From a virus (lineage: Duplodnaviria > Heunggongvirae > Uroviricota > Caudoviricetes), in IMG/VR virus record IMGVR_UViG_2563366825_000028: a DNA stretch of 22,563 nucleotides. The stretch is one strand, 5' to 3'. Below the pieces are notes generated by a model. The model had not been told where the DNA came from. It saw only the letters and a program-made list of their open reading frames with translations, and did no database searches. Both the position numbers and the translations under genes were made by a program. Below, in pieces: positions 715 to 19,401 of this stretch (its first letter is position 1; each line of letters opens with the position of its first letter).

Positions 715-925
715 TCGCCATGCTCCGCATCACGTTTCTTTTTCTGACCTGCCGGACGTCGCACTGTGATGTACTCCGCCTTCCCCAGGCGAACCAGCAC
801 CTCCGCACACGGCTGTGCCACATCACGGATATCCCCGGCCCGGGCATCATGCGTGCCCTGCAGATACTGGATTTTTGCCATCAGTTACTGCGGGAAGCTC
901 GCGCCTCCCGCCCTCCTCATCAGAC

Positions 926-2863
926 TCAGCCGCCGGACGCAGTTCCGTAGTTCACACCGGTGATCACCGCCACCGCCGCGGTACGGCGACGACGCCAGTT
1001 GATCCAGCGCTCCGCACGGATGGCCACGCTGCCTGTCTGGAACATGGAAACCAGCTCCACCGGGGACGGCGTGGTACTGTCGCCGGTCGGCTCAGACTGC
1101 ATTTCCAGTGATGCCTCGCGGGACATATCCACTGCCACGCCGCCGTCATCCGCCAGATAAATATCCGGGGCATTCACCAGCACCAGCTGGTCACCCACGT
1201 ACTGGGAGACAATCACCGGCAGCCCCTGGAAGGAGCCACCCAGCAGGGTCATGTCCGGGTATTCCTTCTGACCCAGCGCATTTTTACGCATGGACAGTGC
1301 CAGGGCATTGGTGCTGGACATCAGCCAGACCGCACCGGTGGGCTGCAGGTTTGCTGCCACAAACTGTCCAAACGCAGCCTCTGCATCCGCATCCGGGTTA
1401 CCGGTTGATGCCGTGCCCTTCACATCATGGGTGATGGACGCCGGGGAGACATCTGCCACTGCGGCTTTTTTCGGGTCCACAAAGTCTGTATCCAGACGCG
1501 CCACCACCGCTTCCGCCAGCGCATTACGGACCAGTGCATCAGCAGCCGGACTGGAAAAACGGATCAATTCTTCCGTCAGTACCGCAATGGCCGACACTTT
1601 CGCATGACTGAAGGTGATGGATTCAAAATCAAACTTCGTCAGGGGTTTTGCCTTACCCTCACCCACCCAGCCGGCAGCACCGCCGGACACCTGGGCGTGC
1701 ACACGGATATTGAACGGCACCTGACGAAGTGCAGGGATCCCGCCCTGACCAAATCGCCCGATAATGGTCTGCGGACGCAGGTAATCAATAAAGTCCTGTG
1801 CGTATTCCTGATATTCAGACAGGCTGCCTGCCCACTGCGGATCCGTGGTGGTCCCCGCGCCCACTGCCGATTTCAGGACATGATGCAGACGACTGTCATC
1901 CGGATACTGACGACGGGCCACTTCCAGGGCTTCAGATCGGACGCCTTTAGCCGCAGCCAGCGATTTGGCAAAGCGGGCGAAGCCAATCCCCTTATCCAGT
2001 TTCTGCTCCACACGGATCACCGGCGCAGAAGCCACCGCGGCCACATTCCCGTTACCGGCCTGTTTCACCGGCTGCGCCGTGGCGGCCTTACCGGCTTCCA
2101 GTTCACGCAGGCGCTTCAGGTGCGCATCCACCTGACGGATTTCCGCTGCGGTGTTGTCGTAATGCTCTTCCTCCTCCACATCCAGCGTGCGCCCTTCCTC
2201 TGCGGCTTTGGTCATGACCTCCTCAAGGGAGGCTGCCAGCGCTGCACGCTTGTTTTCAAAACTTTTAATCTGTTCGCCAATATTCATTATGGTCTTTTCC
2301 TTATGAAAAACGGTTGTTGACTGTGCCGCAGCGCCGGCAGAAGATGCGATTTTCACCACCGGTTTCCGGTTGCCGGACGCGGCAGAAAACGGGCGGTCGT
2401 AAGATTTAATGGTCCGGATGGTGCATTCCGCATTCGCGGGCACGGTGACGGCAGACACCTCCATCAGTTCCCAGCGCATAAAATGCAGTCCGCCTCCGTC
2501 CAGAAAGGTGTATTCATGGGGACGGAAGCCCACGGACAGCCCCCTGACCAGCCCGGTCTTAATGGCCGCCCAGACCTCATCCAGCCGGGCAGCCAGTTGC
2601 GACGGCATATCCGGTACGGGCTTCACCAGTGTTGCCGTGATTTCCAGCCCTTCGCTGACCCGGCGCACCGTACACTGCCCCACCGGGCGGGAATGGTCAT
2701 GCTGCCAGAGAAACGGGATCGCACTGCCAAACTCCGCGCCCTCCGGCTCCAGGATGTCACCATCCCGATCCGGAGAAGGCGTTGACGCAATCCCGGTGAT
2801 CACCCGTTCATCCTCACTGAAGGATTTCACCGTCAGCAGGGAACAGGCCCGTTTAAGAGTCAC
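926..2863 (-). CDS. Fused prohead protease / scaffold / HK97-fold major capsid protein (645 aa)
   Basis: The N-terminal ~160 aa look like an HK97-family prohead protease (FLWQHDHSRPVG, GLSVGF, ELMEVSAVTVPAN). The middle is a charged coiled-coil-like linker (EEEEHYDNTAAEIRQVDAHLKRLRELEAG). The C-terminus looks like an HK97-fold major capsid protein (GWVGEGKAKPLTKFDFESITFSHAKVSAIAVLTEELIRFS ... RAERWINWRRR). GTG start at 2863 with AGGAGG 5 nt upstream. Confidence 0.85.
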   Translation of the reverse strand: MTLKRACSLLTVKSFSEDERVITGIASTPSPDRDGDILEPEGAEFGSAIPFLWQHDHSRPVGQCTVRRVSEGLEITATLVKPVPDMPSQLAARLDEVWAAIKTGLVRGLSVGFRPHEYTFLDGGGLHFMRWELMEVSAVTVPANAECTIRTIKSYDRPFSAASGNRKPVVKIASSAGAAAQSTTVFHKEKTIMNIGEQIKSFENKRAALAASLEEVMTKAAEEGRTLDVEEEEHYDNTAAEIRQVDAHLKRLRELEAGKAATAQPVKQAGNGNVAAVASAPVIRVEQKLDKGIGFARFAKSLAAAKGVRSEALEVARRQYPDDSRLHHVLKSAVGAGTTTDPQWAGSLSEYQEYAQDFIDYLRPQTIIGRFGQGGIPALRQVPFNIRVHAQVSGGAAGWVGEGKAKPLTKFDFESITFSHAKVSAIAVLTEELIRFSSPAADALVRNALAEAVVARLDTDFVDPKKAAVADVSPASITHDVKGTASTGNPDADAEAAFGQFVAANLQPTGAVWLMSSTNALALSMRKNALGQKEYPDMTLLGGSFQGLPVIVSQYVGDQLVLVNAPDIYLADDGGVAVDMSREASLEMQSEPTGDSTTPSPVELVSMFQTGSVAIRAERWINWRRRRTAAVAVITGVNYGTASGG

Positions 2864-2926
2864 ATCAGCCTCCTGAAAATAAAAAAACCGCCGGAGCGGT
2901 TCGTGATGGTTACAGTGTGAACAGGG

Positions 2927-4588
2927 TTATATGAAAAAAACCGCATATTCTTTCTTTTTCGGTTCCGGGTTAAGGGACATCAGGGAGACCGCATTGAACA
3001 GCGCCATCAGCGGGTCAATTTTTCCCCGTCCACTGGCCTGTTTGGTGATAAGAATGGCGTTACCTTTAGGCTCCACCCGGGCATTGCCGACACACCAGGC
3101 CATCAGGGGCTGGTCACCATGCACCAGCACCCCTTCAGCCAGTTTGCGCTCGGTGGTTTTAATGGCCCCGCCCAGTTTCCAGCCCTGGCTTATCCCCACC
3201 ACAATTCCGTCGGGGATCCCGGCTTCCGCCAGTGAATCCAGAATCTGCCCCACCCCTGACGGGTCAATACCGATATGGTCCAGTAACTCAGCCTCATGAA
3301 TGCGACGCACATATTCCGCCACTTCCGCCGTGTCATCCCCGATACGCCGGACAATGGTCATATCTCCACAGGCAACAAGATCCTGAAACCGGGACGCCTC
3401 GCTCTTCCGTCGGACCACCGCGGTTTCATGCGCCCAGGCATGGCCCCAGCCCAGCCATTCGCGGGTCTCCCGGTCACGCCCAATCACATACATCCCCAGC
3501 AGATCATCCAGCCCTCCGCCGTCAATCCCCACCGTCACCACATCAGCACGACGCAGGATATCGTCCAGGCTGATACAACGGCCCTGCTCTTCCCAGAAAT
3601 CAGCCCCCGCCCAGCGGTCAGAGCGCAGGGCAAGACCAATTTCCACATTGGCGTGTTTTGACATGAACCCCCGGAATGTCTCTTCACCGGCTTCCCGGGC
3701 TTTACGGTACTCCCGGTACAGAAAGGCCTCATCCACTGAATAGCCGAGATTCGGATTGACCATGGCGAGGTTTTCCATCAGCAGGTGAGCCCCGCTTTCC
3801 ACCATTTCAGGAGGGTGTTCAAATATCACCGGCAGAAAGTGCGGATCATGAATTTTGCCGTCGCGCACATCCCGGGCGTACTGCAGTTTCTGTCTGAACA
3901 CCCCGGCGGGCGGTTCATTCGACTGGGTGGTCGTATACACCACAAACCCTTCCGGGCGGGAGGCAAGGCCGCCGATGGCTTCACGTAACATGTCCTCCGC
4001 CTTGTACTGCTTGCCAAACAGCCACAACTCATCAATCAGCGTACCCACGGACTTGATACCGGACACCGTATTCGGATCGGCTGCCACCACCTTCAGGGTG
4101 GTGTCTGTCACCCTGTGGGTGATGGTCCGGATATGGGTCTGTACCTGGCAGAGGTCATCCAGATCATCGTCACGTCGTACCATATCCCGGGCAGGGTTGA
4201 AGGCGTTGGCCGCCACCTCCACAGTCGGGGCCAGAATCGTGTAACCCGCCGCCTGCCGCCAGTTCAGTAACAGCGCCGTCATCATGATCCCCGCGGCCAG
4301 CGTGGACTTCGAGTTTTTCTTGGGGATAAGGATAAAAACTTCCTTGATATGGCGTACACCGGTCTGCGCATCGTAGGAGCCAAACAGGGCCGCCACCAGG
4401 TCAAACACCCACGGTGCACAGGACTCCCCGAACGTAGGGCTACCAGGTGCATCCACAATCCGCAGTTGTTTAAAAATCGCCAGGGCATGTGCGGCCTCGT
4501 CCGGATAAATCGGATCCGGAATAATCGACAGCCCCTTTTTCAGGCGCTCAGCCCAGTCCGGGCAGGCTGTGCTCCATACAGGTATCAT
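2927..4588 (-). CDS. Terminase large subunit (Terminase_1-type ATPase/nuclease)
   Basis: 553 aa. Walker-A-like segment ILIPKKNSKSTLAAGIMMTALLL and C-terminal nuclease-domain motifs (VTVGIDGGG.DD, KIDPLMALFNAVSLM). The ATG at 4588 overlaps the terS stop (ATGA coupling). Confidence 0.9.
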   Translation of the reverse strand: MIPVWSTACPDWAERLKKGLSIIPDPIYPDEAAHALAIFKQLRIVDAPGSPTFGESCAPWVFDLVAALFGSYDAQTGVRHIKEVFILIPKKNSKSTLAAGIMMTALLLNWRQAAGYTILAPTVEVAANAFNPARDMVRRDDDLDDLCQVQTHIRTITHRVTDTTLKVVAADPNTVSGIKSVGTLIDELWLFGKQYKAEDMLREAIGGLASRPEGFVVYTTTQSNEPPAGVFRQKLQYARDVRDGKIHDPHFLPVIFEHPPEMVESGAHLLMENLAMVNPNLGYSVDEAFLYREYRKAREAGEETFRGFMSKHANVEIGLALRSDRWAGADFWEEQGRCISLDDILRRADVVTVGIDGGGLDDLLGMYVIGRDRETREWLGWGHAWAHETAVVRRKSEASRFQDLVACGDMTIVRRIGDDTAEVAEYVRRIHEAELLDHIGIDPSGVGQILDSLAEAGIPDGIVVGISQGWKLGGAIKTTERKLAEGVLVHGDQPLMAWCVGNARVEPKGNAILITKQASGRGKIDPLMALFNAVSLMSLNPEPKKKEYAVFFI

Positions 4589-5148
4589 CCGTTGCCCTCA
4601 TTATCGTTATTCACCACCAGTCGGGGTGGCGGTGGCACCGCAAAACGGTTAGCCGCTTTTTTCGCGGCATCACCTTTTGCCGATTTTTTCCCGGTATCCC
4701 CTTTTTTATGGTGCGTGAACTGCGCCAGACGCCAGGCCGCATCCAGTGCCAGTTTCGGATCAATGCAGAGGTTTTCCACCAGGATCCGCCCCATGGCTTT
4801 CACCGGATCGGGAAGACCATCCTCCATATATTCAATACCAGGAGACATCACCGCGGACGGTGGCATCTCCGGATTGTTTTCGTCCGGCTGTGGTATTGCA
4901 GCCGCCTCACGGCGACGGGGTTTATCCTCCTGCTCTGATTTTTTCTGCCGGTAAACAGGAACCTCATCCACCTCCACCGTTTCGCACTGTTTACGGGCTA
5001 TAAACGCGAGCACCTCCGGATCTTTTGCCAGCTGCGAGCCTTTAACCCTGGCGGTCTTCGCCGAATAACCGGCGGCAATGGCTGACGCTGTTTTGTTTTT
5101 CCCGGACATGAGCGCCAGCGCAAATTTTCGTTTTTGCGTTGTCAGCAC
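4585..5148 (-). CDS. Terminase small subunit (Terminase_2 / P27-type)
   Basis: N-terminus LTTQKRKFALALMSGKNKTASAIAAGYSAKTARVKGSQLAKDPEV fits the HTH signature of Terminase_2 small subunits. GTG start with GGAGGAGG upstream; the stop overlaps the terL start. Confidence 0.75.
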   Translation of the reverse strand: MLTTQKRKFALALMSGKNKTASAIAAGYSAKTARVKGSQLAKDPEVLAFIARKQCETVEVDEVPVYRQKKSEQEDKPRRREAAAIPQPDENNPEMPPSAVMSPGIEYMEDGLPDPVKAMGRILVENLCIDPKLALDAAWRLAQFTHHKKGDTGKKSAKGDAAKKAANRFAVPPPPRLVVNNDNEGNG

Positions 5149-5222
5149 AGCCTCCTCCCGGGTCCAGAACGCACTCAGCCGGGTATGGTTCAGCCCATTT
5201 TTCCCGGCGTCTCATGCCGCAA

Positions 5223-5346
5223 ATGTTAACTGCTGCCTGGTTAACATTTGCTGAAAAAGCCAGTTAACATTTTTTCCGCACAACAAACTGAATAATAAAG
5301 ATAAAAACCGCAAAAATGCCCGGGCAGCCAGTTAACATGTTAACTG
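5223..5346. repeat. Cluster of five GTTAAC-centred motifs, including the perfect 18-bp palindrome CAGTTAACATGTTAACTG (5329-5346); candidate cos / terminase-recognition region
   Basis: Copies are ATGTTAACTG (5223-5232), GGTTAACAT (5239-5247), CAGTTAACAT (5261-5270) and the palindrome at 5329-5346. They lie in the 289-bp gap between the HNH stop and the terS start, where HK97-like cos phages carry cos. Confidence 0.6.
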
Positions 5347-5437
5347 CCCTGAAACGGGAATTTTTTCTCTGCGTGAGAGGGGGCGCGGTGTCCGGGACGA
5401 TCGTTTTTATCGCCGGATGATCCCCCCCCAGGGCGGG

Positions 5438-5803
5438 TCACAGTCCGATGATATCGTCTGCCCTGCCACGACCTCCGGACACTTCCGGCAACGTCGGGTC
5501 CGGCATACCACTCGCCGCTTCACTGGCTGACTTCTGGCGATGACATTCAGTACAGAGCGTCCAGAGATTCGTCTCCTCATTACCACCACCGAACTGAAGT
5601 GCAATTCGGTGATCGAGTTCACTGTCACAGAGGTCAACCACACGCCCACAGAGACAGCACTGCCCGGCGTCCCTCAGCCAGATATGACGCTTGAGGGAAA
5701 CACGTGCACTGCCACTGACACGACGCTGTTCCCCCTTCAGAATATTCACCCGTCGGGTATTCAGTGTTTTGATTCTGCTCTGGAGTGTACGAAGCTCAGC
5801 CAT
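5438..5803 (-). CDS. HNH homing-type endonuclease (terminase-associated)
   Basis: 121 aa with the HNH motif CCLCGRVVDLCDSELDHRIALQFGGGNEETNLWTLCTECH. ATG at 5803 with GGGGA RBS. Sits directly upstream of terS, as HNH proteins do in cos-packaging phages. Confidence 0.85.
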   Translation of the reverse strand: MAELRTLQSRIKTLNTRRVNILKGEQRRVSGSARVSLKRHIWLRDAGQCCLCGRVVDLCDSELDHRIALQFGGGNEETNLWTLCTECHRQKSASEAASGMPDPTLPEVSGGRGRADDIIGL

Positions 5804-5844
5804 GTAAAATCCCCGTCATATGGCAATCAGTAAAGGAAATAAAT

Positions 5845-6045
5845 ATGTCATCGAAAAACCGGACCCGCAGAACCACAACCCGCAATATCCGTTTCCCCAA
5901 TCACATGATTGAACAGATCAACATCGCCCTTGAGCATAAAGGATCCGGTAACTTTTCAGCGTGGGTTATTGAAGCCTGCAGGAGAAGGCTGGCAACAGAT
6001 GCAACGCATCTGCGCCCGGCCAGCATGAAAAATAACGAGAAATGA
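5845..6045 (+). CDS. Small YlcI/YnfO-like (DUF3950) prophage protein, possible ribbon-helix-helix fold
   Basis: 66 aa, MSSKNRTRRTTTRNIRFPNHMIEQINIALEHKGSGNFSAWVIEACRRRL..., with AAAGGAAA RBS before ATG 5845. It resembles the small YlcI/YnfO proteins of E. coli cryptic prophages (from memory). The track ORF 5785..6045 starts further upstream in frame, but the RBS supports 5845. Confidence 0.6.
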   Translation: MSSKNRTRRTTTRNIRFPNHMIEQINIALEHKGSGNFSAWVIEACRRRLATDATHLRPASMKNNEK

Positions 6046-6176
6046 ACGTTCGGTTACAGGAGCAGGTACCCACTGTCCTCCAACAATATTTCATCTTCAT
6101 ATCCGACGGAACAAGACTTACCCTGCCGGGATGTACAGAATAACAACAGAGTGATAATTAATTTCTGATGAAATAA

Positions 6177-6509
6177 TCAGGGTGCAGAAGGACTAAAGAT
6201 AAACGTTTTCTTCACGCCTTTACACGGCCTGTCCTTCTCAAATCGCCATTTTGCCATCGCCTTTACAACCTGCTCATCAAACAAATGGTGCGGCTCTGAA
6301 CGGATAAACTCAATTCGGGTGACAGTACCATCAGCACCAATATCAAACTTCACATCAACCCGTCCCTTTATATAATTTGCCGCTGCATAGGCCGGATATT
6401 GTGGTAATGCCTTCACCAACTGTCGGGGCATATCTGTTTTATGTTGCGTACAGCCCATAACCAGAGAAGACAACAAAATAATTAACGGAAGATTTCTTTT
6501 CATTTTCAT
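6177..6509 (-). CDS. Lipoprotein with TonB C-terminal-like domain (prophage accessory gene)
   Basis: Signal peptide plus lipobox (MKMKRNLPLIILLSSLVMGC), then PQYPAYAAANYIKGRVDVKFDIGADGTVTRIEFIRSEPHHLFDEQVVKAMAKWRFE, which fits the TonB_C signature (YP..A...G.V.V.F.....G.V.......S.....FD.....A...WRF). Start taken at ATG 6509; the track uses GTG 6518. Confidence 0.75.
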   Translation of the reverse strand: MKMKRNLPLIILLSSLVMGCTQHKTDMPRQLVKALPQYPAYAAANYIKGRVDVKFDIGADGTVTRIEFIRSEPHHLFDEQVVKAMAKWRFEKDRPCKGVKKTFIFSPSAP

Positions 6510-6523
6510 TCCCGGCACAGATA

Positions 6524-6540
6524 AGAATAAGTCTTATTCT
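6524..6540. promoter_or_regulatory. 17-bp palindrome AGAATAAG-T-CTTATTCT just upstream of the TonB-like gene (candidate operator, loosely Fur-box-like)
   Basis: Perfect inverted repeat about 17 nt upstream of the start codon. In context it reads GATAAGAATAAGTCTTATTC, which matches the Fur box GATAATGATAATCATTATC at 13 of 19 positions by my alignment. Confidence 0.35.
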
Positions 6541-6936
6541 AACAATGCCACCCTGTCGGTCATCAATCCTCTGCTTGATGGCAACGACAATTATCCGACT
6601 TAAATCACAAATCAGACACATAACAGGGCTTGCGAGGTAACACATCGTCCGGTTTCTTCCACCATCGCACCGGACGAGCGACCATGAGGGGACAACGCCG
6701 CGCGCCGTTAACGCGGTAAACCCCGGTGTGTATCGTTTTTGATTATCCCCGCACACTCGCGCAGAGGAGTCTCCCGGTCGGGCTGCGGTCATGGTTAATG
6801 CGGGAATACGGCGACGATACAGCGCATGATATGTCAGGCTTGAATACCTTTATCCGTTAAAAAGGATATCAGTTAAGTTATCCCGTGCAGGGTATAAGCC
6901 ATTATCAAGCCCACCAGTAGATGGGCTTTGTAATGG

Positions 6937-7194
6937 CTACTTCGCTTTTGCTTCCGCTCGCTTACACCGGCGCTTTTCTTTCTTCTCGGCTTTTGCCATG
7001 TCCATGAATGCCTGCATGATCGAGTTCCGCATCATGTAGCTGACAAAGTGATGATTGACACAGCCGTTGAGGCGCAACTGCTCGCCAAACTCATCCACCG
7101 AGGCCAATGCTTCCATCACGCCCTTCTCGCCTTTCATGAACGCTGAGAAGTCGCGCCCCGCTCTGGAGGCGCATTCAATGACACGATCACTCAT
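6937..7194 (-). CDS. Hypothetical protein (85 aa), translationally coupled to the KilA-N gene
   Basis: ATGA overlap with the upstream gene stop (7191-7194). Lys/Arg-rich C-terminal tail. No family recognised. Confidence 0.5.
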   Translation of the reverse strand: MSDRVIECASRAGRDFSAFMKGEKGVMEALASVDEFGEQLRLNGCVNHHFVSYMMRNSIMQAFMDMAKAEKKEKRRCKRAEAKAK

Positions 7195-7688
7195 CCCGGA
7201 AGCCCGGGGATTGTGATCTGCAACTGGTTAGCCAGGGAGTTAATCTCAGCGATCAAACCAGGTTTCGTGTAGCGCCATGCCGCAAGGCCTTGCCCGCAGA
7301 AGCTCGCCATATCTTTTTTCTGATCAAACTCATGACACTTCATATTGAGCTGCGCACTTAAGCTGTTGCGATGCTGGAGTTCTCCGGTGAAGTAGTCATC
7401 CAGGACTTTATAGGCTGCATATTTAAATCCGGGGTTTAGCCATGCTGCATAATCATAAGCAACAAACTTCCCGCCATATGTTCCACCGTGTACACCGCGC
7501 TCAGTAAAAACCACAGATTCGTGGTTTTTCTCCAGCTCGGCTAAGAACTCTTTGGTCTGCTTGTTTCGCAGGTAGTGGTACGGAGATTCAGATTCACTTT
7601 TACCACTGGCTTTCCACATATCAGTGAGGCAGATCATGCCATCTTCAGCGACACGGATTGGCTGATTGAAGAGGGTTAATGATTTCAT
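7191..7688 (-). CDS. KilA-N domain protein (antirepressor/Bro-N-like)
   Basis: MKSLTLFNQPIRVAEDGMICLTDMWKASGK... is typical of the KilA-N DNA-binding domain. ATG 7688 has AGGT 8 nt upstream; the track's GTG at 7757 is an in-frame alternative. Confidence 0.75.
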   Translation of the reverse strand: MKSLTLFNQPIRVAEDGMICLTDMWKASGKSESESPYHYLRNKQTKEFLAELEKNHESVVFTERGVHGGTYGGKFVAYDYAAWLNPGFKYAAYKVLDDYFTGELQHRNSLSAQLNMKCHEFDQKKDMASFCGQGLAAWRYTKPGLIAEINSLANQLQITIPGLPG

Positions 7689-7841
7689 GTCGTATACCTG
7701 TTCTTTGAAATGAACCTTTGCCGCATAGGAAACCAGCCCACCGAGGCTCGCCAGCACTAACTGGTATCCTCAAAGGCTCATTCCAAAGGGGCAGGCTCGG
7801 TGGTTATCATGCGCTGCGGTGCGCGGTGAAATTCAGATATG

Positions 7842-7867
7842 AAAAAGCCCACGCGTTTACGTGGGCT
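7842..7867 (-). terminator. Candidate rho-independent terminator (minus-strand sense)
   Basis: Stem AGCCCACG / CGTGGGCT with a 6-nt loop, followed on the minus strand by TTTTT (plus-strand A run 7842-7846). Confidence 0.5.
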
Positions 7868-8098
7868 GGTGTGCATGACGTCAGGACTAACCGATGAGTT
7901 TTAAATCAGCTTTTCGGTGTTTTTTCTGATCGGTATAAAAATTTTCATGTGGACCGATGCTAAGGAGGTAGAGCTCAAGTTTATCGTCAAGCCAGCTGTA
8001 ACCCAGAAGCACCAGTTGATTATTCAGCTGAAATTTATGCACACTGAACCGCCCCGGAAATCCTGGAGACTAAACTCCCTGAGAAAGAGGTAAACAGG

Positions 8099-8425
8099 AT
8101 GACTAAAAATACTCGTTTTTCCCCCGAAGTCCGTCAGCGGGCGATTCGTATGGTTCTGGAAAGTCAGGATGAATATGACTCACAGTGGGCGGCAATTTGT
8201 TCCATTGCCCCAAAGATTGGCTGTACGCCGGAGACTCTGCGTGTCTGGGTTCGCCAGCATGAGCGGGATACCGGGGGCGGTGATGGTGGGCTCACCAGCG
8301 CTGAACGTCAGCGTCTGAAAGAGCTGGAACGTGAAAATCGTGAACTGCGCCGCAGTAACGATATCCTTCGCCAGGCTTCCGCTTATTTTGCGAAGGCGGA
8401 GTTCGACCGCCTCTGGAAAAAATGA
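8099..8425 (+). CDS. IS3-family transposase OrfA (HTH / leucine-zipper part)
   Basis: 108 aa, [65 protein letters not shown], matching IS629/IS1203 OrfA as I recall it. The A6 run 8417-8422 at the orfA/orfB overlap is a possible -1 frameshift slippery site. Confidence 0.9.
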
Positions 8426-9312
8426 TGCCACTGCTGGATAAGCTGCGTGAGCAGTACGGGGTCGGACCGGTATGCAGCGAACTGCATATTGCCCCGTCAA
8501 CGTATTACCATTGTCAGCAACAGCGACATCATCCGGATAAACGCAGTGCCCGTGCGCAGCACGATGACTGGCTGAAGAGAGAGATACAGCGCGTATACGA
8601 TGAAAATCATCAGGTGTACGGTGTGCGTAAAGTCTGGCGTCAGTTGTTACGGGAAGGAATCAGGGTGGCCAGATGTACAGTGGCGCGCCTCATGGCGGTT
8701 ATGGGACTTGCCGGTGTTCTCCGGGGTAAAAAGGTCCGCACTACCGTCAGCCGGAAAACCGTTGCCACAGGTGACCGCGTAAACCGTCAGTTCGTGGCAG
8801 AACGTCCTGACCAGCTGTGGGTGGCTGATTTTACTTACGTCAGCACATGGCAGGGCTTCGTCTATGTGGCGTTTATCATTGATGTGTTTGCCGGATACAT
8901 CGTGGGGTGGCGGGTCTCATCGTCTATGGAAACGACATTCGTGCTGGATGCGCTGGAGCAGGCGTTGTGGGCCCGTCGTCCGTCTGGCACCATCCATCAC
9001 AGCGATAAAGGCTCTCAGTATGTGTCACTGGCCTATACGGAGCGACTAAAAGAAGTCGGATTACTGGCATCAACAGGGAGTACAGGCGACTCGTATGACA
9101 ACGCGATGGCTGAGAGCATCAATGGTCTTTACAAAGCGGAGGTAATACACCGTAAGAGCTGGAAAAACCGTGCAGAAGTGGAACTGGCCACACTAACGTG
9201 GGTGGACTGGTATAACAATCGACGATTGCTGGGAAGGCTGGGCCATACTCCTCCGGCAGAAGCAGAAAAAGCTTATTATGCTTCCATCGGAAACAATGAT
9301 CTGGCAGCCTGA
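8422..9312 (+). CDS. IS3-family transposase OrfB (DDE integrase-core catalytic domain)
   Basis: 296 aa with rve-type motifs ([59 protein letters not shown]). The ATG overlaps the orfA stop (ATGA). Confidence 0.9.
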
Positions 9313-9354
9313 GTTCACAGATAAAACACTCTCCAGGAAACCCGGGGCGGTTCA

Positions 9355-9509
9355 ATAAATCTCCAGTCCGTTCTGCTTATCTTCGATTCATGACAGCCAA
9401 TCATCTTTGCCAGACCGCGCTGGGTAAGCGTTGACAGGTTGATAAGTAAATCTGTTTCTGCGCGATCAACGTCGCGCTGTGATAGTTTGCTGTAACTTGT
9501 TTGTTCCAT
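9355..9509 (-). pseudogene. cII: cII-like transcriptional activator gene, truncated at its 3' end by the IS
   Basis: The first 52 codons (MEQTSYSKLSQRDVDRAETDLLINLSTLTQRGLAKMIGCHESKISRTDWRFI) run into the IS right end. The HTH segment with ...ESKISRTDWRFI parallels lambda CII ...KSQISRWKRDWIP (from memory). The rest of the track ORF 9315..9509 is read-through into IS sequence. Confidence 0.7.
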
Positions 9510-9594
9510 TTCTTAAGATTTCCAATAGTGAATAGTTAGTTGAAAGGTATGCGTGGAAACGCATATGGCCTTAGTTGGTCAGATATCTTGGGAC

Positions 9595-9640
9595 TCGCTT
9601 TTCAGCGACGTAGGACGAATGTCCGTTGTTACAAAGAGCG
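9595..9640 (-). promoter_or_regulatory. nutR-like N-utilisation site (boxA + boxB), between cro and cII
   Basis: Read on the minus strand: boxA CGCTCTTTGTAACAA (9640..9626), a 17-nt spacer, then boxB hairpin UCGCU-GAAA-AGCGA (9608..9595). The boxB core GCUGAAAAGC is shared with the nutL candidate. Confidence 0.5.
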
Positions 9641-9648
9641 GGTACTGC

Positions 9649-9867
9649 TTAGGCGGCTTTGTTACTGGATGGAGGGAAAACATCATCCAAAGAACATTGG
9701 CACCCTAACTTCCTGAGGCCTTCTACGATCTTTCGGCAATCGTTAAGTCTAGGAGTACGGATATTCAGCTCATAGTTGGCGATGCGGGATTGCCCCCAAC
9801 CAATTGCCGAAGCCAGTACAGCTTGCGAAACTCCGATTTTTTTTCGCTGCTGGGCAATTTTGTTCAT
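9649..9867 (-). CDS. cro: Cro-like repressor (XRE-family HTH), divergent from cI
   Basis: 72 aa from ATG 9867 (GGGAGA RBS), MNKIAQQRKKIGVSQAVLASAIGWGQSRIANYE... The track ORF starts at an upstream GTG inside the operator region. Confidence 0.8.
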   Translation of the reverse strand: MNKIAQQRKKIGVSQAVLASAIGWGQSRIANYELNIRTPRLNDCRKIVEGLRKLGCQCSLDDVFPPSSNKAA

Positions 9868-9975: not shown

Positions 9976-10623
9976 ATGAAAACGATGCATGAAATTATCG
10001 GGGAAAGGATCAAGTCCCTTAGAGAAGCTAAAGGACTTAGCCAGGCTCAATTGGCCAAGCTTTGCGGCTGGGCTGCGCCTTCACGCCTGGGGAACTACGA
10101 GTTAGGAACAAGAAAGGTTAGCGCGGATGACGCGCTGGTTCTTGGGGCGGCACTCGGCGTATCTCCGGCAAAAATAATGTTTGGCGAGGATTCAGACGCT
10201 GTATTTCGCCAATATGAGTACCCGTTATTTTCTTCAGTGCAGGCCGGGCCGTTTTCGGAGGTTGGAAGCTACACAGCAAGCGATGCAAAGGCATGGGTCC
10301 CAACGACCACAAAAGCCAGCGAAAAAGCTTTCTGGCTTGAGGTGAAAGGCCATTCTATGACTGCGCCACAGGGCGTAAGGCCGAGTTTTCCTGAGGGTAT
10401 GCTGATACTCGTTGATCCGGCCGAGCCGGTAGAGTCTGGGGATTTCTGCGTGGCTTCTGCAAATGGTGATTCAGAGGCAACGTTCAAGAAGTATGAGAAG
10501 GATGCAGGGGTTAGTTACTTGGTTCCATTGAATCCGGCATACAGAACCCTGGACTGCGATCACACATGCCGCATCATAGGCAAGGTAGTTAAGGCTCAGT
10601 GGCCTGAAGAGACGTTTGGATGA
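9976..10623 (+). CDS. cI: CI-like prophage repressor (HTH domain + LexA-like S24 autopeptidase domain)
   Basis: 215 aa with an N-terminal HTH ([24 protein letters not shown]). The C-terminal domain is very like lambda CI: cleavage-site region [10 protein letters not shown], catalytic Ser in [21 protein letters not shown], and the end ...[17 protein letters not shown] 9985 is an alternative start. Confidence 0.9.
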
Positions 10624-10673
10624 TGGATGGTCGCAGAGATGCTCGTAGAGCATACAGCGATGCAGGAGAATTT

Positions 10674-11108
10674 ATGGCACTTAATTTAGAAAGAATATCT
10701 TTTATAACCCCATTTGATAGCAGCGAAGAACCCAACCAACCGACGCTTAATTTTACATGCAATGAATTTCCTGCGCGGCTATCGATTGATTTCAGGGTTG
10801 GTATGATCGGGTTGAAACCAAATTCAAGATATAATTTGGGTATTATGGTAATCCCCGCGCACCTAATTATAAAAAAAGGTGAGGAAATTCAATTCCCTGA
10901 CGGCTCTTCGGAATCAGTTTCACTTTTCATCGATACGAAAGATAGCCATTTTGAAACAGGGGTTGGCGGACAGGTAATAGTAACATTGAAAGAAATTAGG
11001 GTCCCAGCTAAAGGGCTGTATAGTGTTATAGGGATATTGCAAGATAATGAAGACCCTAAAAATGAACTTCATAAAAATGAATCATTTTTCACCGTAGAGC
11101 TATTATGA
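10674..11108 (+). CDS. Hypothetical soluble protein A (144 aa) of the cI-linked cassette
   Basis: ATG 10674 with AGGAG 5 nt upstream, MALNLERISFITPFDSSEEPNQPTLNFTCNEFPARLSIDFRVGMIGLKPNSRY... Sequence becomes AT-rich from about 10670. No family recognised. Its stop overlaps the start of B (ATGA at 11105-11108). The track ORF begins at 10620, overlapping the cI stop. Confidence 0.7.
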   Translation: MALNLERISFITPFDSSEEPNQPTLNFTCNEFPARLSIDFRVGMIGLKPNSRYNLGIMVIPAHLIIKKGEEIQFPDGSSESVSLFIDTKDSHFETGVGGQVIVTLKEIRVPAKGLYSVIGILQDNEDPKNELHKNESFFTVELL

Positions 11109-11725
11109 GTGACGACAGTAATTTAAATAATCATGGAAAGCAAGACACCAACATATCTGAAAGCCGGAGGTTGAAGGTTGTTGGCGGTTCCGATTTTGAG
11201 GCTGAATTTGATAATTCTCCCACCAAGGTGCAAAATAATTACATAAAACCGCCACAAACGGAGGAAGAAGTGGGAACGATCAGCAGAGAGGAACTTGATG
11301 CTCGCTTAGCTGCTAATAAAGCAGAGATGGAGTCTATTGCTTCTTCCATTAGGACTGACATGGCTCTATCTCGTGAAAGCGTTAATGTCCAATTTGCATC
11401 ACTTAATGCAGCCATAAGCTCTCTATCGTCCAAGATCGATGGAAAGATGGATAGCGCTGCTGGCGATATAAAAGCAATTAATGGGAGATTCGAAGGAATT
11501 CAAGGACAAATAACAGGGGTTAATACCGCAATTAGTGGTGTTCAGTCGGGTATTTCTATACGATTAGCCATTTTTAGTGTCATTATCGCTGTAATAGTTG
11601 CGATTCCCGGGCTGGTATCAGCTTTAAAGTCAGACCACGCACCTTTGCAACAGCCTTCCACTTTGCAAGCGCCGCCACAAAATACCCAGCCAACAGACAA
11701 CAAAAAAATCACTCCCCAGCATTAA
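11105..11725 (+). CDS. Hypothetical tail-anchored coiled-coil membrane protein B (206 aa) of the cI-linked cassette
   Basis: Polar N-terminus, then a long Ala/Ser/Gly/Ile-rich repetitive segment (ASLNAAISSLSSKIDGKMDSAAGDIKAINGRFEGIQGQITGVNTAISGVQSG), one hydrophobic helix ISIRLAIFSVIIAVIVAIPGLVSAL, and a Pro/Gln-rich tail. Followed directly by an intrinsic terminator. Confidence 0.75.
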   Translation: MSDDSNLNNHGKQDTNISESRRLKVVGGSDFEAEFDNSPTKVQNNYIKPPQTEEEVGTISREELDARLAANKAEMESIASSIRTDMALSRESVNVQFASLNAAISSLSSKIDGKMDSAAGDIKAINGRFEGIQGQITGVNTAISGVQSGISIRLAIFSVIIAVIVAIPGLVSALKSDHAPLQQPSTLQAPPQNTQPTDNKKITPQH

Positions 11726-11733
11726 CGCATTAA

Positions 11734-11757
11734 CCCGGCCTCAGCGCCGGGTTTTTT
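11734..11757 (+). terminator. Rho-independent terminator closing the cI-A-B transcription unit
   Basis: CCCGGC (11734-11739), loop CTCAGC, GCCGGG (11746-11751), then TTTTTT (11752-11757). Confidence 0.75.
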
Positions 11758-11994
11758 GTTGCCTGCACATAACTATCAGGACAGCACCTGCCAGCCAGCC
11801 CAAGCCTCTGATTAAATTACTATAATTCTTAATACAACTCCCATATCCCGCCATCTCGTCACCACCTACTTCGCTCGTTTTTCGAACTTTTCAGCACACC
11901 ATCCTGCTGTTTCCCCCGCCTTAAGTAAGCAAACCCATCGCGGGGAAAACTATTTACACAAAAAAATCATACACATAACGTGTCACACCCTTAT

Positions 11995-12042
11995 TTTACA
12001 CATTTTGTGATTGACCATTAAATCACAATATGTGACTATTAT
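11995..12042 (+). promoter_or_regulatory. OL / pL region: CACA-N3-TGTG operators overlapping the early-left promoter
   Basis: Operators CACATTTTGTG (11999-12009) and TCACAATATGTGA (12023-12035). TTGACC (12011-12016) followed by an operator in the spacer mirrors the pR layout (TTGACT + operator + TGTAAT); -10 candidates are GACTAT and TATTAT (12034-12042). An alternative pair is -35 TTTACA (11995-12000) with -10 TTAAAT (12018-12023). Confidence 0.55.
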
Positions 12043-12086
12043 TTCCATCAGCAGGACGCTGGTAGCCAAACGGAAAAGATTGGCAG

Positions 12087-12132
12087 GCTCTTTAAACAAC
12101 GTCGAACACTCGACTACGTGGCTGAAAAGCCA
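12087..12132 (+). promoter_or_regulatory. nutL-like site (boxA + boxB) upstream of N
   Basis: boxA GCTCTTTAAACAA (12087-12099) is close to the rrn/lambda boxA consensus. A 19-nt spacer precedes the boxB hairpin UGGCU-GAAA-AGCCA (12119-12132). Its boxB core and boxA-boxB spacing match the nutR candidate. Confidence 0.6.
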
Positions 12133-12230
12133 GATCACCCAACCACATAAGCTGTGGGATGCAATGCCGAAGCAACCGTCTCAGGAGGAGCTTCGAGATT
12201 GCATCGCCAAAGTTTATTCGGGAGGAATCT

Positions 12231-12503
12231 ATGTCCAGAAAAACAGAATTTAAAGGCACCGCAGCTTCTCGCCGTAGAGCTCGTCGCGCAAACCTGCAAA
12301 GTCAGGAGTCGATTAGCTCCGACAAGCTACACAGGCCAACCCCTTCACGAGTGGTCTTGCAATGCAAGCGCAAACCAGCAATGAGAGCAGAAGTTATAAC
12401 TCTGACAACGTTGACCAGAAAATATGAAGGTTCAACTTGTCTTCCAAACGTAGCCATTTACGCTGCAGGCTACCGTAAATCCAAACAACTGACAGCAAGA
12501 TGA
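12231..12503 (+). CDS. N: N-type transcription antiterminator (P22 gp24 / phage 21 N-like)
   Basis: 90 aa from ATG 12231 (GGAGG 5 nt upstream). Arginine-rich motif GTAASRRRARRANLQ near the N-terminus; C-terminus LPNVAIYAAGYRKSKQLTAR matches the P22 gp24 end LPGVALYAAGHRKSKQITAR (from memory). An in-frame upstream ATG at 12159 has a poor RBS. Confidence 0.8.
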   Translation: MSRKTEFKGTAASRRRARRANLQSQESISSDKLHRPTPSRVVLQCKRKPAMRAEVITLTTLTRKYEGSTCLPNVAIYAAGYRKSKQLTAR

Positions 12504-12564
12504 CTTGTGTTGGTCGCCAGAAAATGAAATTAGGCAGCAAACCACTTATTTGAGAGGAATTAAT

Positions 12565-13188
12565 ATGTCATCAATCCGCTTAACTACGAGAATGAAAGAG
12601 GAAATCGCTCGTAACGCTTTAATTAAGTCCGGGGTGTTCACTGAACTTGAAGAAGTAACAAAGTTAAAGAACCAGCTTGCACTTGACGCCAGAGTTATTG
12701 CGTTTGGCGGGAAAAAGAAAACCGAAGAAGTGGACCAGCTGGCATCAAAGTTAATGGCTGCAAGTGAGGAACTTCAAAAGCTGGGATGTTCATTTTACTC
12801 ATGCGATGTCAGTTCATGTTCGATTTATCTGACTGTATCTGGAAGAAGGGTTGGCTGGCATTCATACGGAAAAGACGGCAACGGTGAAGATATATTGCTC
12901 CCTACCCCCGACAAAGATAAATGCATGTTTGACGCAGAACACAAAATAACAAAAAGGTTTGATGAAATCTGCGCATTGCAACAAAAACTTGAAGCCAGGA
13001 AAAAGGATATAGAATCAAACGTATGGGCTGCTTTGAACTCAGTCACAACAGTTAAGCGACTTATTGAAGTTTGGCCTGAAAGCAAAGAGTTGCTACCAAA
13101 AGAAGCAGATAAAGCAAGTGCAGCACTTCCTGCTTTACGGGTAGAAGATTTGAATAAGATGATTGGACTTCCTTCCGAGGCCGCATAA
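12565..13188 (+). CDS. Hypothetical protein (207 aa), AT-rich accessory gene in the N-cIII interval
   Basis: ATG 12565 with GAGAGGAA RBS. No TM segments and no family recognised. Occupies the position where lambda carries ral/sieB-type accessory genes. Confidence 0.7.
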   Translation: MSSIRLTTRMKEEIARNALIKSGVFTELEEVTKLKNQLALDARVIAFGGKKKTEEVDQLASKLMAASEELQKLGCSFYSCDVSSCSIYLTVSGRRVGWHSYGKDGNGEDILLPTPDKDKCMFDAEHKITKRFDEICALQQKLEARKKDIESNVWAALNSVTTVKRLIEVWPESKELLPKEADKASAALPALRVEDLNKMIGLPSEAA

Positions 13189-13203
13189 TCGGCCTTTATT
13201 TTT
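13179..13203 (+). terminator. Weak candidate intrinsic terminator at the end of the 12565-13188 gene
   Basis: GGCCG (13179-13183), loop CATAAT containing the stop codon, CGGCC (13190-13194), then TTTATTTTT. Confidence 0.4.
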
Positions 13204-13322
13204 GGCATAAACAACAGAATAAACACTGCACTGTGTATTCATTCCAACGAGTGAATACACGGAGCAATGTCGCTCGTAACTAAACAGGAGCCGACTTGTT
13301 CTGATTATTGGAAATCTTCTTT

Positions 13323-13346
13323 GCCCTCCAATGTGAGGGCTTTTTT
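13323..13346 (+). terminator. Rho-independent terminator (tL-like) upstream of cIII
   Basis: GCCCTC (13323-13328), loop CAATGT, GAGGGC (13335-13340), then TTTTTT (13341-13346). Confidence 0.7.
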
Positions 13347-13412
13347 ATATGCATACCAATAACGCTTCACTAGAGGCGTTTTCGTTATGTGTAAATAAAT
13401 AAGGAGCACACC

Positions 13413-13553
13413 ATGCAATATGCCATTGCAGGGTGGCCTGTTGCTGGCTGCCCTTCCGAATCTTTACTTGAACGAATCACCCGTAAATTACGTGACGGAT
13501 GGAAACGCCTTATCGACATACTTAATCAGCCAGGAGTTCCCAAAAATGGATAA
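13413..13553 (+). CDS. cIII: CIII-like FtsH (HflB) protease inhibitor (46 aa)
   Basis: AAGGAG RBS 6 nt upstream. [46 protein letters not shown] is essentially the lambda CIII sequence as I recall it, including the central amphipathic helix. Below the ORF-track size cut-off. Confidence 0.85.
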   Translation: MQYAIAGWPVAGCPSESLLERITRKLRDGWKRLIDILNQPGVPKNG

Positions 13554-13689
13554 AACACTTATGGCTATCCAGACTAAATTCACTATCGCCACTTTTATTG
13601 GTGATGAAAAGATGTTTCGTGAAGCCGTCGACGCTTATAAAAAATGGATATTAATACTGAAACTGAGATCAAGCAAAAGCATTCACTAA
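13546..13689 (+). CDS. kil: Kil-like host cell-division inhibitor (47 aa)
   Basis: ATG overlaps the cIII 3' end. [47 protein letters not shown]; position between cIII and gam and the overlap with the gam 5' region match the lambda kil arrangement (from memory). Confidence 0.7.
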
Positions 13690-13762
13690 CCCCTTTCCTG
13701 TTTTCCTAATCAGCCCGGCATTTCGCGGGCGATATTTTCACAGCTATTTCAGGAGTTCAGCC

Positions 13763-14059
13763 ATGAACGCTTATTACATTCAGGATCGTCTTGAGGCTCA
13801 GAGCTGGGCGCGTCACTACCAGCAGATCGCCCGTGAAGAGAAAGAGGCAGAACTGGCAGACGACATGGAAAAAGGCCTGCCCCAGCACCTGTTTGAATCG
13901 CTATGCATCGATCATTTGCAACGCCACGGGGCCAGCAAAAAAGCCATTATCCGTGCGTTTGATGACGATGTTGAGTTTCAGGAGCGCATGGCAGAACACA
14001 TCCGGTACATGGTTGAAACCATTGCTCACCATCAGGTTGATATTGATTCAGAGGTATAA
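13763..14059 (+). CDS. gam: Gam host-nuclease (RecBCD) inhibitor, short GamS form (98 aa)
   Basis: [56 protein letters not shown]... is near-identical to lambda GamS as I recall it. AGGAG RBS 7 nt upstream. Confidence 0.95.
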
Positions 14060-14064
14060 AACGG

Positions 14065-14850
14065 ATGAGTACAGCACTCGCAACGCTGGCAGGGAAGCTG
14101 GCTGAACGTGTCGGCATGGATTCTGTCGACCCACAGGAACTGATCACCACTCTTCGCCAGACGGCATTTAAAGGCGATGCCAGCGATGCGCAGTTCATCG
14201 CATTGTTGATCGTCGCCAACCAGTACGGCCTTAATCCGTGGACGAAAGAAATTTACGCCTTCCCTGATAAGCAGAACGGCATCGTTCCGGTGGTGGGCGT
14301 TGATGGCTGGTCCCGCATCATCAATGAAAACCAGCAGTTTGATGGCATGGACTTTGAGCAGGACAATGAATCCTGTACATGCCGGATTTACCGCAAGGAC
14401 CGTAATCATCCGATCTGCGTTACCGAATGGATGGATGAATGCCGCCGCGAACCATTCAAAACCCGCGAAGGCAGAGAAATCACCGGACCGTGGCAGTCGC
14501 ATCCCAAACGGATGTTACGGCATAAAGCCATGATTCAGTGTGCCCGTCTGGCCTTCGGATTTGCTGGTATCTATGACAAGGATGAAGCCGAGCGCATTGT
14601 CGAAAATACTGCATACACTGCAGAACGTCAGCCAGAACGCGACATCACTCCGGTTAACGATGAAACCATGCAGGAGATTAACACTCTGCTGATCGCCCTG
14701 GATAAAACATGGGATGACGACTTATTGCCGCTCTGTTCCCAGATATTTCGCCGCGACATTCGCGCATCGTCAGAACTGACACAGGCCGAAGCAGTGAAAG
14801 CTCTTGGATTCCTGAAACAGAAAGCCACTGAGCAGAAGGTGGCAGCATGA
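14065..14850 (+). CDS. bet: Bet (Red-beta) single-strand annealing recombinase
   Basis: 261 aa beginning [66 protein letters not shown], near-identical to lambda Bet (from memory). Confidence 0.97.
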
Positions 14851-15527
14851 CACCGGACATTATCCTGCAGCGTACCGGGATCGACGTGAGAGCTGTCGAA
14901 CAGGGGGATGATGCATGGCACAAATTACGGCTCGGCGTCATCACCGCTTCAGAAGTTCACAACGTGATAGCAAAGCCCCGCTCAGGAAAGAAGTGGCCTG
15001 ACATGAAAATGTCCTACTTCCACACCCTGCTGGCTGAGGTTTGCACCGGTGTGGCTCCGGAAGTTAATGCTAAGGCGCTGGCCTGGGGAAAACAGTACGA
15101 GAACGACGCCAGAACCCTGTTTGAATTCACTTCCGGCGTGAATGTTACTGAATCCCCGATCATCTATCGCGACGAAAGTATGCGCACAGCCTGCTCTCCC
15201 GATGGTTTATGCAGTGACGGCAATGGCCTTGAGCTGAAATGCCCGTTTACCTCCAGGGATTTCATGAAGTTCCGGCTCGGTGGTTTCGAGGCCATAAAGT
15301 CGGCTTACATGGCCCAGGTGCAGTACAGCATGTGGGTGACGCGAAAAGATGCCTGGTACTTTGCCAACTATGACCCGCGTATGAAGCGTGAAGGCCTGCA
15401 TTATGTCGTGATTGAGCGGAATGAAAAGTACATGGCGAATTTTGACGAGATGGTGCCGGAGTTCATCGAAAAAATGGACGAGGCACTGGCTGAAATTGGT
15501 TTTGTATATGGGGAGCAATGGCAATGA
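14847..15527 (+). CDS. exo: Exo (Red-alpha) 5'-3' dsDNA exonuclease
   Basis: 226 aa beginning [65 protein letters not shown], near-identical to lambda Exo (from memory). Start overlaps the bet stop. Confidence 0.97.
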
Positions 15528-15682
15528 AGCATCCTCACGATAATATCCGGGTAGGCGCGATCACTTTCGTCTACTCCGTTACAAAGCGAGGCTGGGTATT
15601 TCCCGGCCTTTCTGTTATCCGAAATCCGCTGAAAGCACAGCGGCTGGCTGAGGAGATAAATAATAAACGGGAGAGTGTATGA
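15524..15682 (+). CDS. Small hypothetical protein (52 aa), translationally coupled on both sides
   Basis: ATG 15524 overlaps the exo stop (ATGA) and its stop overlaps the next start (ATGA at 15679-15682). [52 protein letters not shown]. Not in the ORF track (<60 aa). Confidence 0.45.
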
Positions 15683-16431
15683 TTCATTTTCACGGTGGTC
15701 CAATAACTCCCGATACCTGTGCGTTGAAAGCCTGGAAAGGCAGACACGCATTCATCAGTTTTGCTAATCCAGCTCAGATTGATCTGGCTTCCGAAGTCAC
15801 CCAATCATTTGCTCTTGATAATGGTGCATTCACATTCTGGACAAAAAACAAGGCCATAGACTGGAATGAATATTACAGATTTGTTGAACGCTGGGGTAAT
15901 CACCCTCGTTTCTCATTCGCGGTTATCCCGGATGTTATCGGCGGAACCAGTGAAGAGAATGACGCCCTGATTGCGGCATGGCCTCACGGTAAATTTATTG
16001 GTGCTCCGGTGTGGCACATGAACGAACCAGATGAGCGATTTATTCGTCTGTGCCATGAGTTTCCCCGCGTCTGCATCGGCTCGATGGGGGAATACGATGC
16101 AAAACGACCGAGAGCGTGTCGGGCTAAACTACGCGATCTTATACGTCATGTTGTAGATCAGTACGGCTACCCAATCACCAAGATTCATGGGTTACGGATG
16201 TTAAATAAAGACATTTTTACTCATGTACCGCTTTCGTCTGCAGACAGCACGAACGTCGCAAGAAATATAGGCATCGACAAATCCTGGGTAGGTTCGCCAT
16301 ATGCTCCCGCAAGTAAAGAAACCCGTACGCAAGTTCTTGTGGAACGCATTGAATCATTCAACAGTGCCAGTTCACTTAATTACAACGCTGAACGGGACGT
16401 CTTTACCCCTCAACTGGCATTCGAAGTGTGA
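15679..16431 (+). CDS. Hypothetical protein (250 aa); weak resemblance to TGT/DpdA-like transglycosylases, unverified
   Basis: Clean ORF in the exo-xis operon. LDNGAFTF and IGSMGEYD segments loosely recall the TGT motifs around the catalytic Asp residues (DSGGFQ, MGVG.PED). This is a memory-based guess; I make no functional claim. Confidence 0.8.
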   Translation: MIHFHGGPITPDTCALKAWKGRHAFISFANPAQIDLASEVTQSFALDNGAFTFWTKNKAIDWNEYYRFVERWGNHPRFSFAVIPDVIGGTSEENDALIAAWPHGKFIGAPVWHMNEPDERFIRLCHEFPRVCIGSMGEYDAKRPRACRAKLRDLIRHVVDQYGYPITKIHGLRMLNKDIFTHVPLSSADSTNVARNIGIDKSWVGSPYAPASKETRTQVLVERIESFNSASSLNYNAERDVFTPQLAFEV

Positions 16432-16438
16432 GGCCAAT

Positions 16439-16654: not shown

Positions 16655-16676
16655 ACATGAAAAGCAAAATCATCAG

Positions 16677-16697
16677 GGAGCTACAGGCTCCTTTTTT
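16677..16697 (+). terminator. Rho-independent terminator inside the exo-xis operon
   Basis: GGAGC (16677-16681), loop TACAG, GCTCC (16687-16691), then TTTTTT (16692-16697). Confidence 0.6.
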
Positions 16698-16752
16698 ATT
16701 ATTCGCATTCACCCTCAAGCGTATTAACCAACAATTCAGGGATTAATGGAAG

Positions 16753-18135: not shown

Positions 18136-18136
18136 G

Positions 18137-18328: not shown

Positions 18329-18329
18329 T

Positions 18330-19208: not shown

Positions 19209-19209
19209 T

Positions 19210-19398: not shown

Positions 19399-19401
19399 CC
19401 C

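Follow-up and report, generated by a model that had tools for sequence, protein, structure and literature searches.

An IS629 element between cII and parE remnants in a lambdoid prophage of Escherichia coli KTE14 that lacks replication, Q and lysis genes

The stretch of DNA analysed here (the window, 22,563 nucleotides of a Caudoviricetes record) corresponds to bases 1-22563 of scaffold KE136654.1 (283 kb) in the 2013-era draft assembly GCA_000407805.1 of E. coli KTE14. Its position 1 is the scaffold end, which falls inside a portal gene, and no Ns occur in the window. Gene content was obtained from Pfam and PHROGs scans of the main open reading frames (ORFs). At the head side, these scans identify a protease-capsid fusion and an intact packaging module on the minus strand (2927..5803), composed of the large terminase (2927-4588; Pfam TerL_ATPase and TerL_nuclease), the small terminase (4585-5148; Terminase_2) and an HNH endonuclease (5438-5803; HNH), together with a YlcI/DUF3950 gene, a TonB_C lipoprotein gene, an 85-aa ORF and a KilA-N gene. 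At the early side, a cro-like HTH gene with a length of 72 aa in the source annotation (9649..9867, minus strand; HTH_3) lies next to a cI-type repressor with HTH and S24 peptidase domains (9976..10623, plus strand; Peptidase_S24, E 4e-26, and HTH_31). Past cI come two unknown genes, N, Nmad5, cIII/kil, gam, bet, exo and several early-left genes, and the module finishes with an excisionase (20989-21243, plus strand; DUF1233) and a tyrosine integrase (21277-22563, plus strand; Arm-DNA-bind_2 and Phage_integrase) of the type that adjoins mlrA in strains SCU-104 and 2014C-3011. The packaging and head genes, N, cI, cro, the Red genes, xis and int are all intact, in keeping with the earlier proposal that the immunity and recombination/integration modules had been retained. 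PADLOC returned nothing useful for the neighbouring unknown genes.

The same scans agree with the first-pass annotation on what is missing, as neither Pfam nor PHROGs assigns any ORF of the window to an O/P or DnaB-type replication gene, a Q antiterminator, a holin, an endolysin or Rz, apart from one PHROG label that was rejected. With no replication, late-activation or lysis genes, the element has the gene content of a defective lambdoid prophage. The TonB_C gene was considered as a surviving spanin, given that PHROG 1267 carries the label "Rz-like spanin". This label was judged to be an error, because the predicted product combines a lipoprotein signal with a TonB_C domain and lacks a C-terminal membrane segment, and because phage JLK-2012 carries a TonB_C gene in addition to a real Rz, which lies beyond KilA-N at a distance of 1.4 kb.

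Between the two sides lies a complete IS629/IS1203 element of the IS3 family (8045..9354, plus strand; 1310 bp, both termini exact). An IS629-like element had been recognised before, with a start at 7758. The longest KilA-N ORF ends there and 7758-8044 is phage DNA, so the span of the element had to be corrected. Over its full 1310 bp the element shares 99.0-99.1% identity with copies annotated as "IS3-like element IS1203 family" in O157 genomes, and 95-96.4% with those found in phage JLK-2012 and at other, non-O157 loci of E. coli. It starts with TGAACCGCCCCGG and finishes with CCGGGGCGGTTCA. The left terminal inverted repeat (8045..8069, plus strand) matches the reverse complement of the IS right end at 22 of its 25 positions, and the right repeat (9330..9354, plus strand) has the reverse complement TGAACCGCCCCGGGTTTCCTGGAGAG. 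Two intact plus-strand ORFs occupy the interior: orfA (8099..8425; 108 aa, HTH_Tnp_1, PF01527, E 2.4e-12) and, in the -1 frame relative to it, orfB (8422..9312; 296 aa, DDE integrase core, Pfam rve, E 1e-27, and HTH_21, E 8e-18). They overlap at 8422-8425, an A-run is present, and the overlap is covered by an ALIL frameshift-stimulating pseudoknot (8380..8496, plus strand; Rfam RF01497, positions 1-117 of 117, 121.5 bits, gathering score 50). In length, imperfect terminal repeats, identity, and an orfA/orfB pair in 0/-1 frames with its frameshift signal, the element conforms in full to IS629/IS1203. The exact OrfB sequence is rare, with one other contig in the gene index; this contig is metagenomic and its IS lies inside ydfU of a Qin prophage, unrelated to the KTE14 joint. 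The OrfA sequence is very common and so uninformative for tracing IS copies.

The right end of the element abuts a 5′ remnant of cII (9355..9509, minus strand) that comprises codons 1-51 and 2 nt of codon 52. It matches positions 1-49 of the 91 of Pfam Phage_CII (E 9.7e-17), and an alignment to intact 98-aa CII proteins shows identity through residue 52. Both results confirm that the IS right end sits at cII codon 52, as initially proposed. The ORF as called (9315-9509) extends into the IS, with CII residues 53-98 replaced by IS-encoded read-through. What is left therefore falls short of a full-length Phage_CII domain (about 97 aa), and cII is a gene remnant. In intact relatives the breakpoint has its counterparts at locus position 18003 in SCU-104, 19839 in 2014C-3011 and 36237 in JLK-2012.

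The left flank does not continue cII, as had been stated, and carries instead a gene remnant that the first reading of the sequence had missed. This is the 3′ part of a parE-like toxin gene (7887..8044, minus strand), consisting of codons 59-109 of 109 plus 2 nt and matching Pfam PF15781 at positions 49-87 of 87 (E 3.5e-13). Alignment to the intact 109-aa ParE of SW070917 and CFSAN029787 gives residues 59-109 as the part kept in the window. In these two strains KilA-N and Rz are separated by an intact parD-parE pair. Neither the parD antitoxin gene nor the 5′ half of parE occurs in the window, which holds no complete ParE-like toxin with a preceding ParD antitoxin gene. Window positions 7150-8044 are 100% identical at the DNA level to SW070917, up to the very IS junction. 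The remaining phage DNA on this side (7758-7886) is non-coding and includes a predicted terminator-like hairpin 3′ of the parE remnant (7846..7867, minus strand), a consensus match with a 9-pair stem of which 6 pairs are G-C, followed by TTTTC. Beyond it lies the KilA-N/ORF11CD3 gene (7191..7688, minus strand; 165 aa from its ATG, Pfam KilA-N, E 8e-16). In intact relatives KilA-N is the first gene past the lysis cassette, and it is annotated with 498 bp directly after Rz or after parDE in SW070917, CFSAN029787, 2014C-3011 and JLK-2012. The gene list given earlier for the interval between cII and the packaging genes thus holds for KilA-N, TonB_C, YlcI/DUF3950 and HNH, and fails in claiming these as the only ones, since the 85-aa ORF (6937-7194) and the parE remnant are also there.

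At the corrected boundaries the element is flanked by ...tgcacac on the left and ataaatc... on the right, and the comparison of cac with ata gives no 3-bp target-site duplication. The absence of a duplication had been noted previously and it stands, while the left flank quoted at that time (...gccac) adjoins the longest KilA-N ORF and not the IS junction. As a control, 11 further complete IS629-family copies in related prophage loci were inspected for the sequences at both ends. A perfect duplication of 3 bp borders eight of them (gat, ttc, gga, gta, tac, ttg, ctc and tgg), against a chance rate of 1/64 per copy. The three copies without duplication are those of MDR_56 and HCP4S3_I4 and the second copy in 28RC1; the two inspected, MDR_56 and HCP4S3_I4, both lie at rearrangement junctions. 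In HCP4S3_I4, gam is joined to cII across the IS and a second, inverted IS is found close by. Because most control copies carry a duplication that would rarely arise by chance, its absence in KTE14 is informative: it marks an event that followed insertion and gives no argument against the IS629 identity of the element.

A joint of this kind in a draft assembly calls for considering an artefact, in which two real insertions (cII::IS629 and parE::IS629, in one or two prophages) would have been collapsed by a short-read assembler with the intervening DNA dropped. The window comes from a draft scaffold and sits at the scaffold end, and a 1.3-kb multicopy repeat is a classic misjoin site. However, the IS is fully assembled with both of its junctions and with no Ns, and the same type of junction without duplication exists in closed genomes (MDR_56). 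Even under this explanation, which is improbable on balance, both IS insertions would be real.

Alignment to intact lambdoid relatives, recommended in the first-pass annotation, defines what lies between the two breakpoints elsewhere. In phage JLK-2012 (NC_049942, Marienburgvirus) the window positions 1-7802 correspond to locus 14702-22498 as a single block with 95.9% identity, and positions 9355-9641 correspond to locus 36237-36523. The 13,738 bp that separate these blocks contain Rz, R, S, yjhS, tciAB, three tRNAs, Q, ninI, ninG, roi, ant, ninE, dam, ninB, ren, P, O and the 3′ part of cII. The corresponding gap is 11,439 bp in the prophage that 2014C-3011 carries at mlrA, and SCU-104 harbours an intact mlrA prophage that is 99.3-99.6% identical to window 10605-22563. 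Altogether, the breakpoints lie 11.4-13.7 kb apart in these intact relatives (JLK-2012, 2014C-3011 and SCU-104), in the same order and orientation, and in relatives that carry parDE the interval also includes parD and the 5′ half of parE. The absent segment thus runs from the 3′ half of cII through the replication, nin, Q and lysis genes. The gene order on either side of the IS is shared with JLK-2012 and with the mlrA prophages of 2014C-3011 and SCU-104, and JLK-2012 has the HNH-YlcI-TonB_C-KilA-N block in common with the window. Unlike KTE14, these three prophages are intact from cII to Rz; none of them is an exact parent, and parDE is found only in SW070917-type relatives. Collinear flanks in the same orientation, with additional DNA between them in intact relatives, are the pattern of an IS-mediated deletion. 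Together with the missing duplication, they support the deletion or rearrangement put forward in the earlier reading. Counting about 1 kb for parD and the 5′ half of parE, the missing segment would amount to about 12-14.5 kb.

The comparison with relatives also bears on an exchange between two lambdoid prophages of one chromosome, in which IS629 recombination would have caused an inversion or translocation, created a hybrid prophage and left the "missing" genes at the reciprocal junction. The two flanks in fact differ in their nearest relative, SW070917 for the left (97.6-99.6%) and SCU-104 for the right (99.3-99.6%), although lambdoid mosaicism alone explains different nearest neighbours. The break of the scaffold in the portal gene is what would be expected if another prophage had the same late region, and because of this break KTE14 probably has a further prophage whose late region is similar. 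In HCP4S3_I4 an inversion is bounded by IS copies beside cII, and large prophage-mediated rearrangements have been documented in O157 (PMC8743559). Nevertheless, such an exchange would require the IS copies, and also the prophages, to be in matching orientations, and the head module and the mlrA-type integrase occur in one joined match in four complete genomes (about 32 kb in three of them), of which 2014C-3011, the one inspected, has a single collinear prophage. Taken together, these observations make a two-prophage origin rather unlikely, and a real IS629-bounded deletion inside one prophage, by whichever route, is the probable explanation of the locus.

The deletion inside one prophage would have affected a lambdoid prophage of the JLK-2012 type, with HK97-like heads and an integrase type that adjoins mlrA/yehV in two relatives. 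It would have lost about 12-14 kb, from codon 52 of cII to codon 58/59 of the parE-like gene, leaving a single complete IS629 at the joint. The loss would comprise the 3′ half of cII, O and P (with the origin), ren, the nin genes, and Q with the late promoter, and further the moron and tRNA region, S, R, Rz, parD and the 5′ half of parE.

At the mechanistic level, recombination between two IS629 copies is the likeliest route to this joint, an inference that we regard as tentative. It would begin with two insertions in the same orientation, one in cII and the other in parE. The insertion in parE would have disarmed the toxin, and the loss of parD would thereby have become possible. RecA-dependent recombination between the two copies could then have removed the interval, and the one IS left behind would be bordered on its left by the flank of one insertion and on its right by that of the other. 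A single IS whose flanks come from two insertions would therefore show no duplication. A two-copy intermediate is plausible, because one prophage of 28RC1 harbours a pair of like-oriented IS629 copies at a distance of 6.7 kb. Sites of IS629-family insertion recur in this region, in cII (28RC1 and M1300706002), P (strain 8368), O (UTAK-6) and after ren (O103 strain 12009), and up to three IS629 copies have been found in Stx2a phages (PMC4587872).

An adjacent deletion made in one step by a single IS629 has also been considered. An element already located in cII or parE would have attacked a distant site of the same prophage by aberrant intramolecular strand transfer from one end, with the IS retained and perhaps with the help of the IS-excision enhancer. 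Both IS termini are exact and no duplication is present, as such a reaction predicts; adjacent losses of a few nt to >40 kb have been reported for IS629 (PMC9943667), and a "sloppy" one-end attack model has been discussed (bioRxiv 10.1101/2023.06.07.543989). On the other hand, copy-out-paste-in transposition is not expected to give deletions of this kind without an extra resolving step (bioRxiv 10.1101/2023.06.07.543989), and an endpoint in the 330-bp parE fits an earlier neutral insertion at least as well. The single-IS route is somewhat doubtful taken by itself; set against recombination between two copies it is nearly as likely, and the two are not separable from the sequence.

Searches for the joint in other genomes identified neither a second occurrence nor an intermediate. 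The two junction sequences of 27-30 nt had no other occurrence in the genome or viral contig collections, and the left one had none in the metagenome contig collection. Junction-spanning queries against 5,426 complete E. coli genomes did not find the junction of cII codon 52 with parE codon 58/59, exact-protein matches of the two junction ORFs were restricted to the KTE14 scaffold, and a simple IS629 insertion at either exact site was not present in the collections searched.

At the functional level, the predicted consequences follow from the genes lost. Because the origin, O, P, Q with the late promoter, S, R and Rz are gone, the prophage is inferred to be unable to replicate, to run the normal Q-driven late programme or to lyse the cell. 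Its cI repressor should still confer immunity and allow a response to SOS induction. Since int and xis are intact, excision may still occur, and the "fixed" cryptic state suggested in the first-pass annotation is not established. The element has kept N and the rightward promoter, and also its packaging and head genes, which are now 1.6 kb from cro. Antiterminated transcripts can cross IS629, as read-through was shown for stx2::IS629 (PMC7430833), and N-modified transcription from the rightward promoter might for this reason reach KilA-N and the packaging genes. It is conceivable that the endpoints are not accidental at all. The cII-O-P region would then be a preferred or selected landing zone in which IS629 tames prophages by blocking the rightward early operon, parDE would filter the surviving deletions to those that also destroy parE, and late expression without Q would proceed by N-antiterminated read-through of the IS. 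As a whole, this reading is speculative and its probability is low.

For annotation, the results imply that the prophage should be described as defective, cII and parE as pseudogenes, and the IS as spanning 8045-9354. The locus offers a base-resolved case of IS629 turning an inducible lambda-like phage into a harmless, gene-rich remnant, and adds one more independent IS629 event to the cII-O-P region. Existing knowledge on IS elements and prophage decay is unchanged by it, as the KTE14 event is an ordinary IS-associated prophage deletion, a kind of event that was already known.

This event can be compared with the well-documented activity of IS629 in enterohaemorrhagic E. coli. With the IS629/IS1203 copies of these strains, the KTE14 element shares the length, terminal repeats, orfA/orfB layout and ALIL pseudoknot, besides 99% identity to the O157 copies, and it differs from them in lacking the usual 3-bp duplication. 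No other IS is as abundant in O157 as IS629, which causes gene inactivation, genomic deletions and prophage diversification (PMC9943667, PMC4587872, PMC2669165 and PMC7430833). Many gene inactivations together with genomic deletions have been attributed to it in O157 (PMC9943667, which cites Ooka 2009 and Kusumoto 2011), and it has been described as the chief driver of variation within Stx2a phage types (PMC4587872). Like the IS629 deletions of O157 (PMC9943667) and the pool of defective prophages of O157 Sakai (PMC2669165), the KTE14 locus presents an IS bounding a multi-kb deletion in a lambdoid prophage that is defective and yet retains many intact genes; the KTE14 junction itself is the part that has no counterpart in the collections searched. 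The closest parallel is the MDR_56 prophage (NZ_CP019903.1), in which an IS1203 in the same orientation and without duplication links the holin gene to the sequence immediately downstream of cII. There O, P, nin and Q are gone, whereas cII and the lysis genes survive; in KTE14, cII is cut and the lysis genes and parD have been lost too. The MDR_56 prophage is an independent, parallel deletion of the same type beside cII.

At the level of the insertion sequence, other E. coli prophages carry IS629-family copies at five distinct insertion sites, which lie within cII, O or P or downstream of ren (loci L004, L005, L010, L012 and L013), and every one of these insertions is flanked by a 3-bp target-site duplication. 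These sites make up a recurrent landing zone for IS629-family elements within the rightward early operon, in a sample that is biased by the query design, since the loci were drawn by searching for the IS plus cII on the same strand. Two further, independent IS junctions adjoin cII and lack the duplication. At the one in the MDR_56 prophage (L001, 8227-9536), the region from O to Q is deleted and the IS is joined to the holin gene, while at the one in HCP4S3_I4 (L011, 2501-3810) gam is joined to cII. The latter locus bears another IS copy in the opposite orientation at a distance of 2 kb, an arrangement that looks like an inversion. The protein cluster of the window's ORF that includes the cII remnant (9315-9509) also contains products of 53-55 aa annotated as 'CII family transcriptional regulator, partial' in many draft assemblies, a single such sequence being present on 43 contigs. 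We suspect that these partial products are cII genes cut by repeats at contig ends.

The parD-parE toxin-antitoxin pair lies between Rz and KilA-N in SW070917 and CFSAN029787 (L002 and L003, both 14738-15272). This arrangement is rare: when 5,426 complete genomes of E. coli were searched, only 9 had a match to the window's parE segment. Position 1 of the window is itself the end of scaffold KE136654.1 (bases 1-22,563; draft assembly GCA_000407805.1, E. coli KTE14), which cuts the portal gene (1-925). This break within the portal gene suggests that the KTE14 genome contains a second prophage with a near-identical late region.

A gene for a TonB_C-domain lipoprotein (6177-6518, minus strand) sits within a segment of ~590 bp (6056-6645) that is found in phage JLK-2012 and missing at the same position in SW070917 and 2014C-3011. 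The label 'Rz-like spanin' given to its family, PHROG 1267, appears to be wrong. In the early-left region, an Nmad5 (nucleotide-modification-associated) gene adjoining N (12505-13188, plus strand) and a gene for a 250-aa protein matching half of PHROG 887, 'queuine tRNA-ribosyltransferase' (15679-16431, plus strand), may represent DNA or nucleotide modification cargo. Immediately 3' of cI, two overlapping plus-strand genes, phrog_5893 and phrog_5820 (10620-11725), are kept in SCU-104 and MDR_56; searches with Pfam and PADLOC returned no match for either. The pair could encode exclusion functions expressed in the lysogen; in lambda, the site that it holds is occupied by rexAB.
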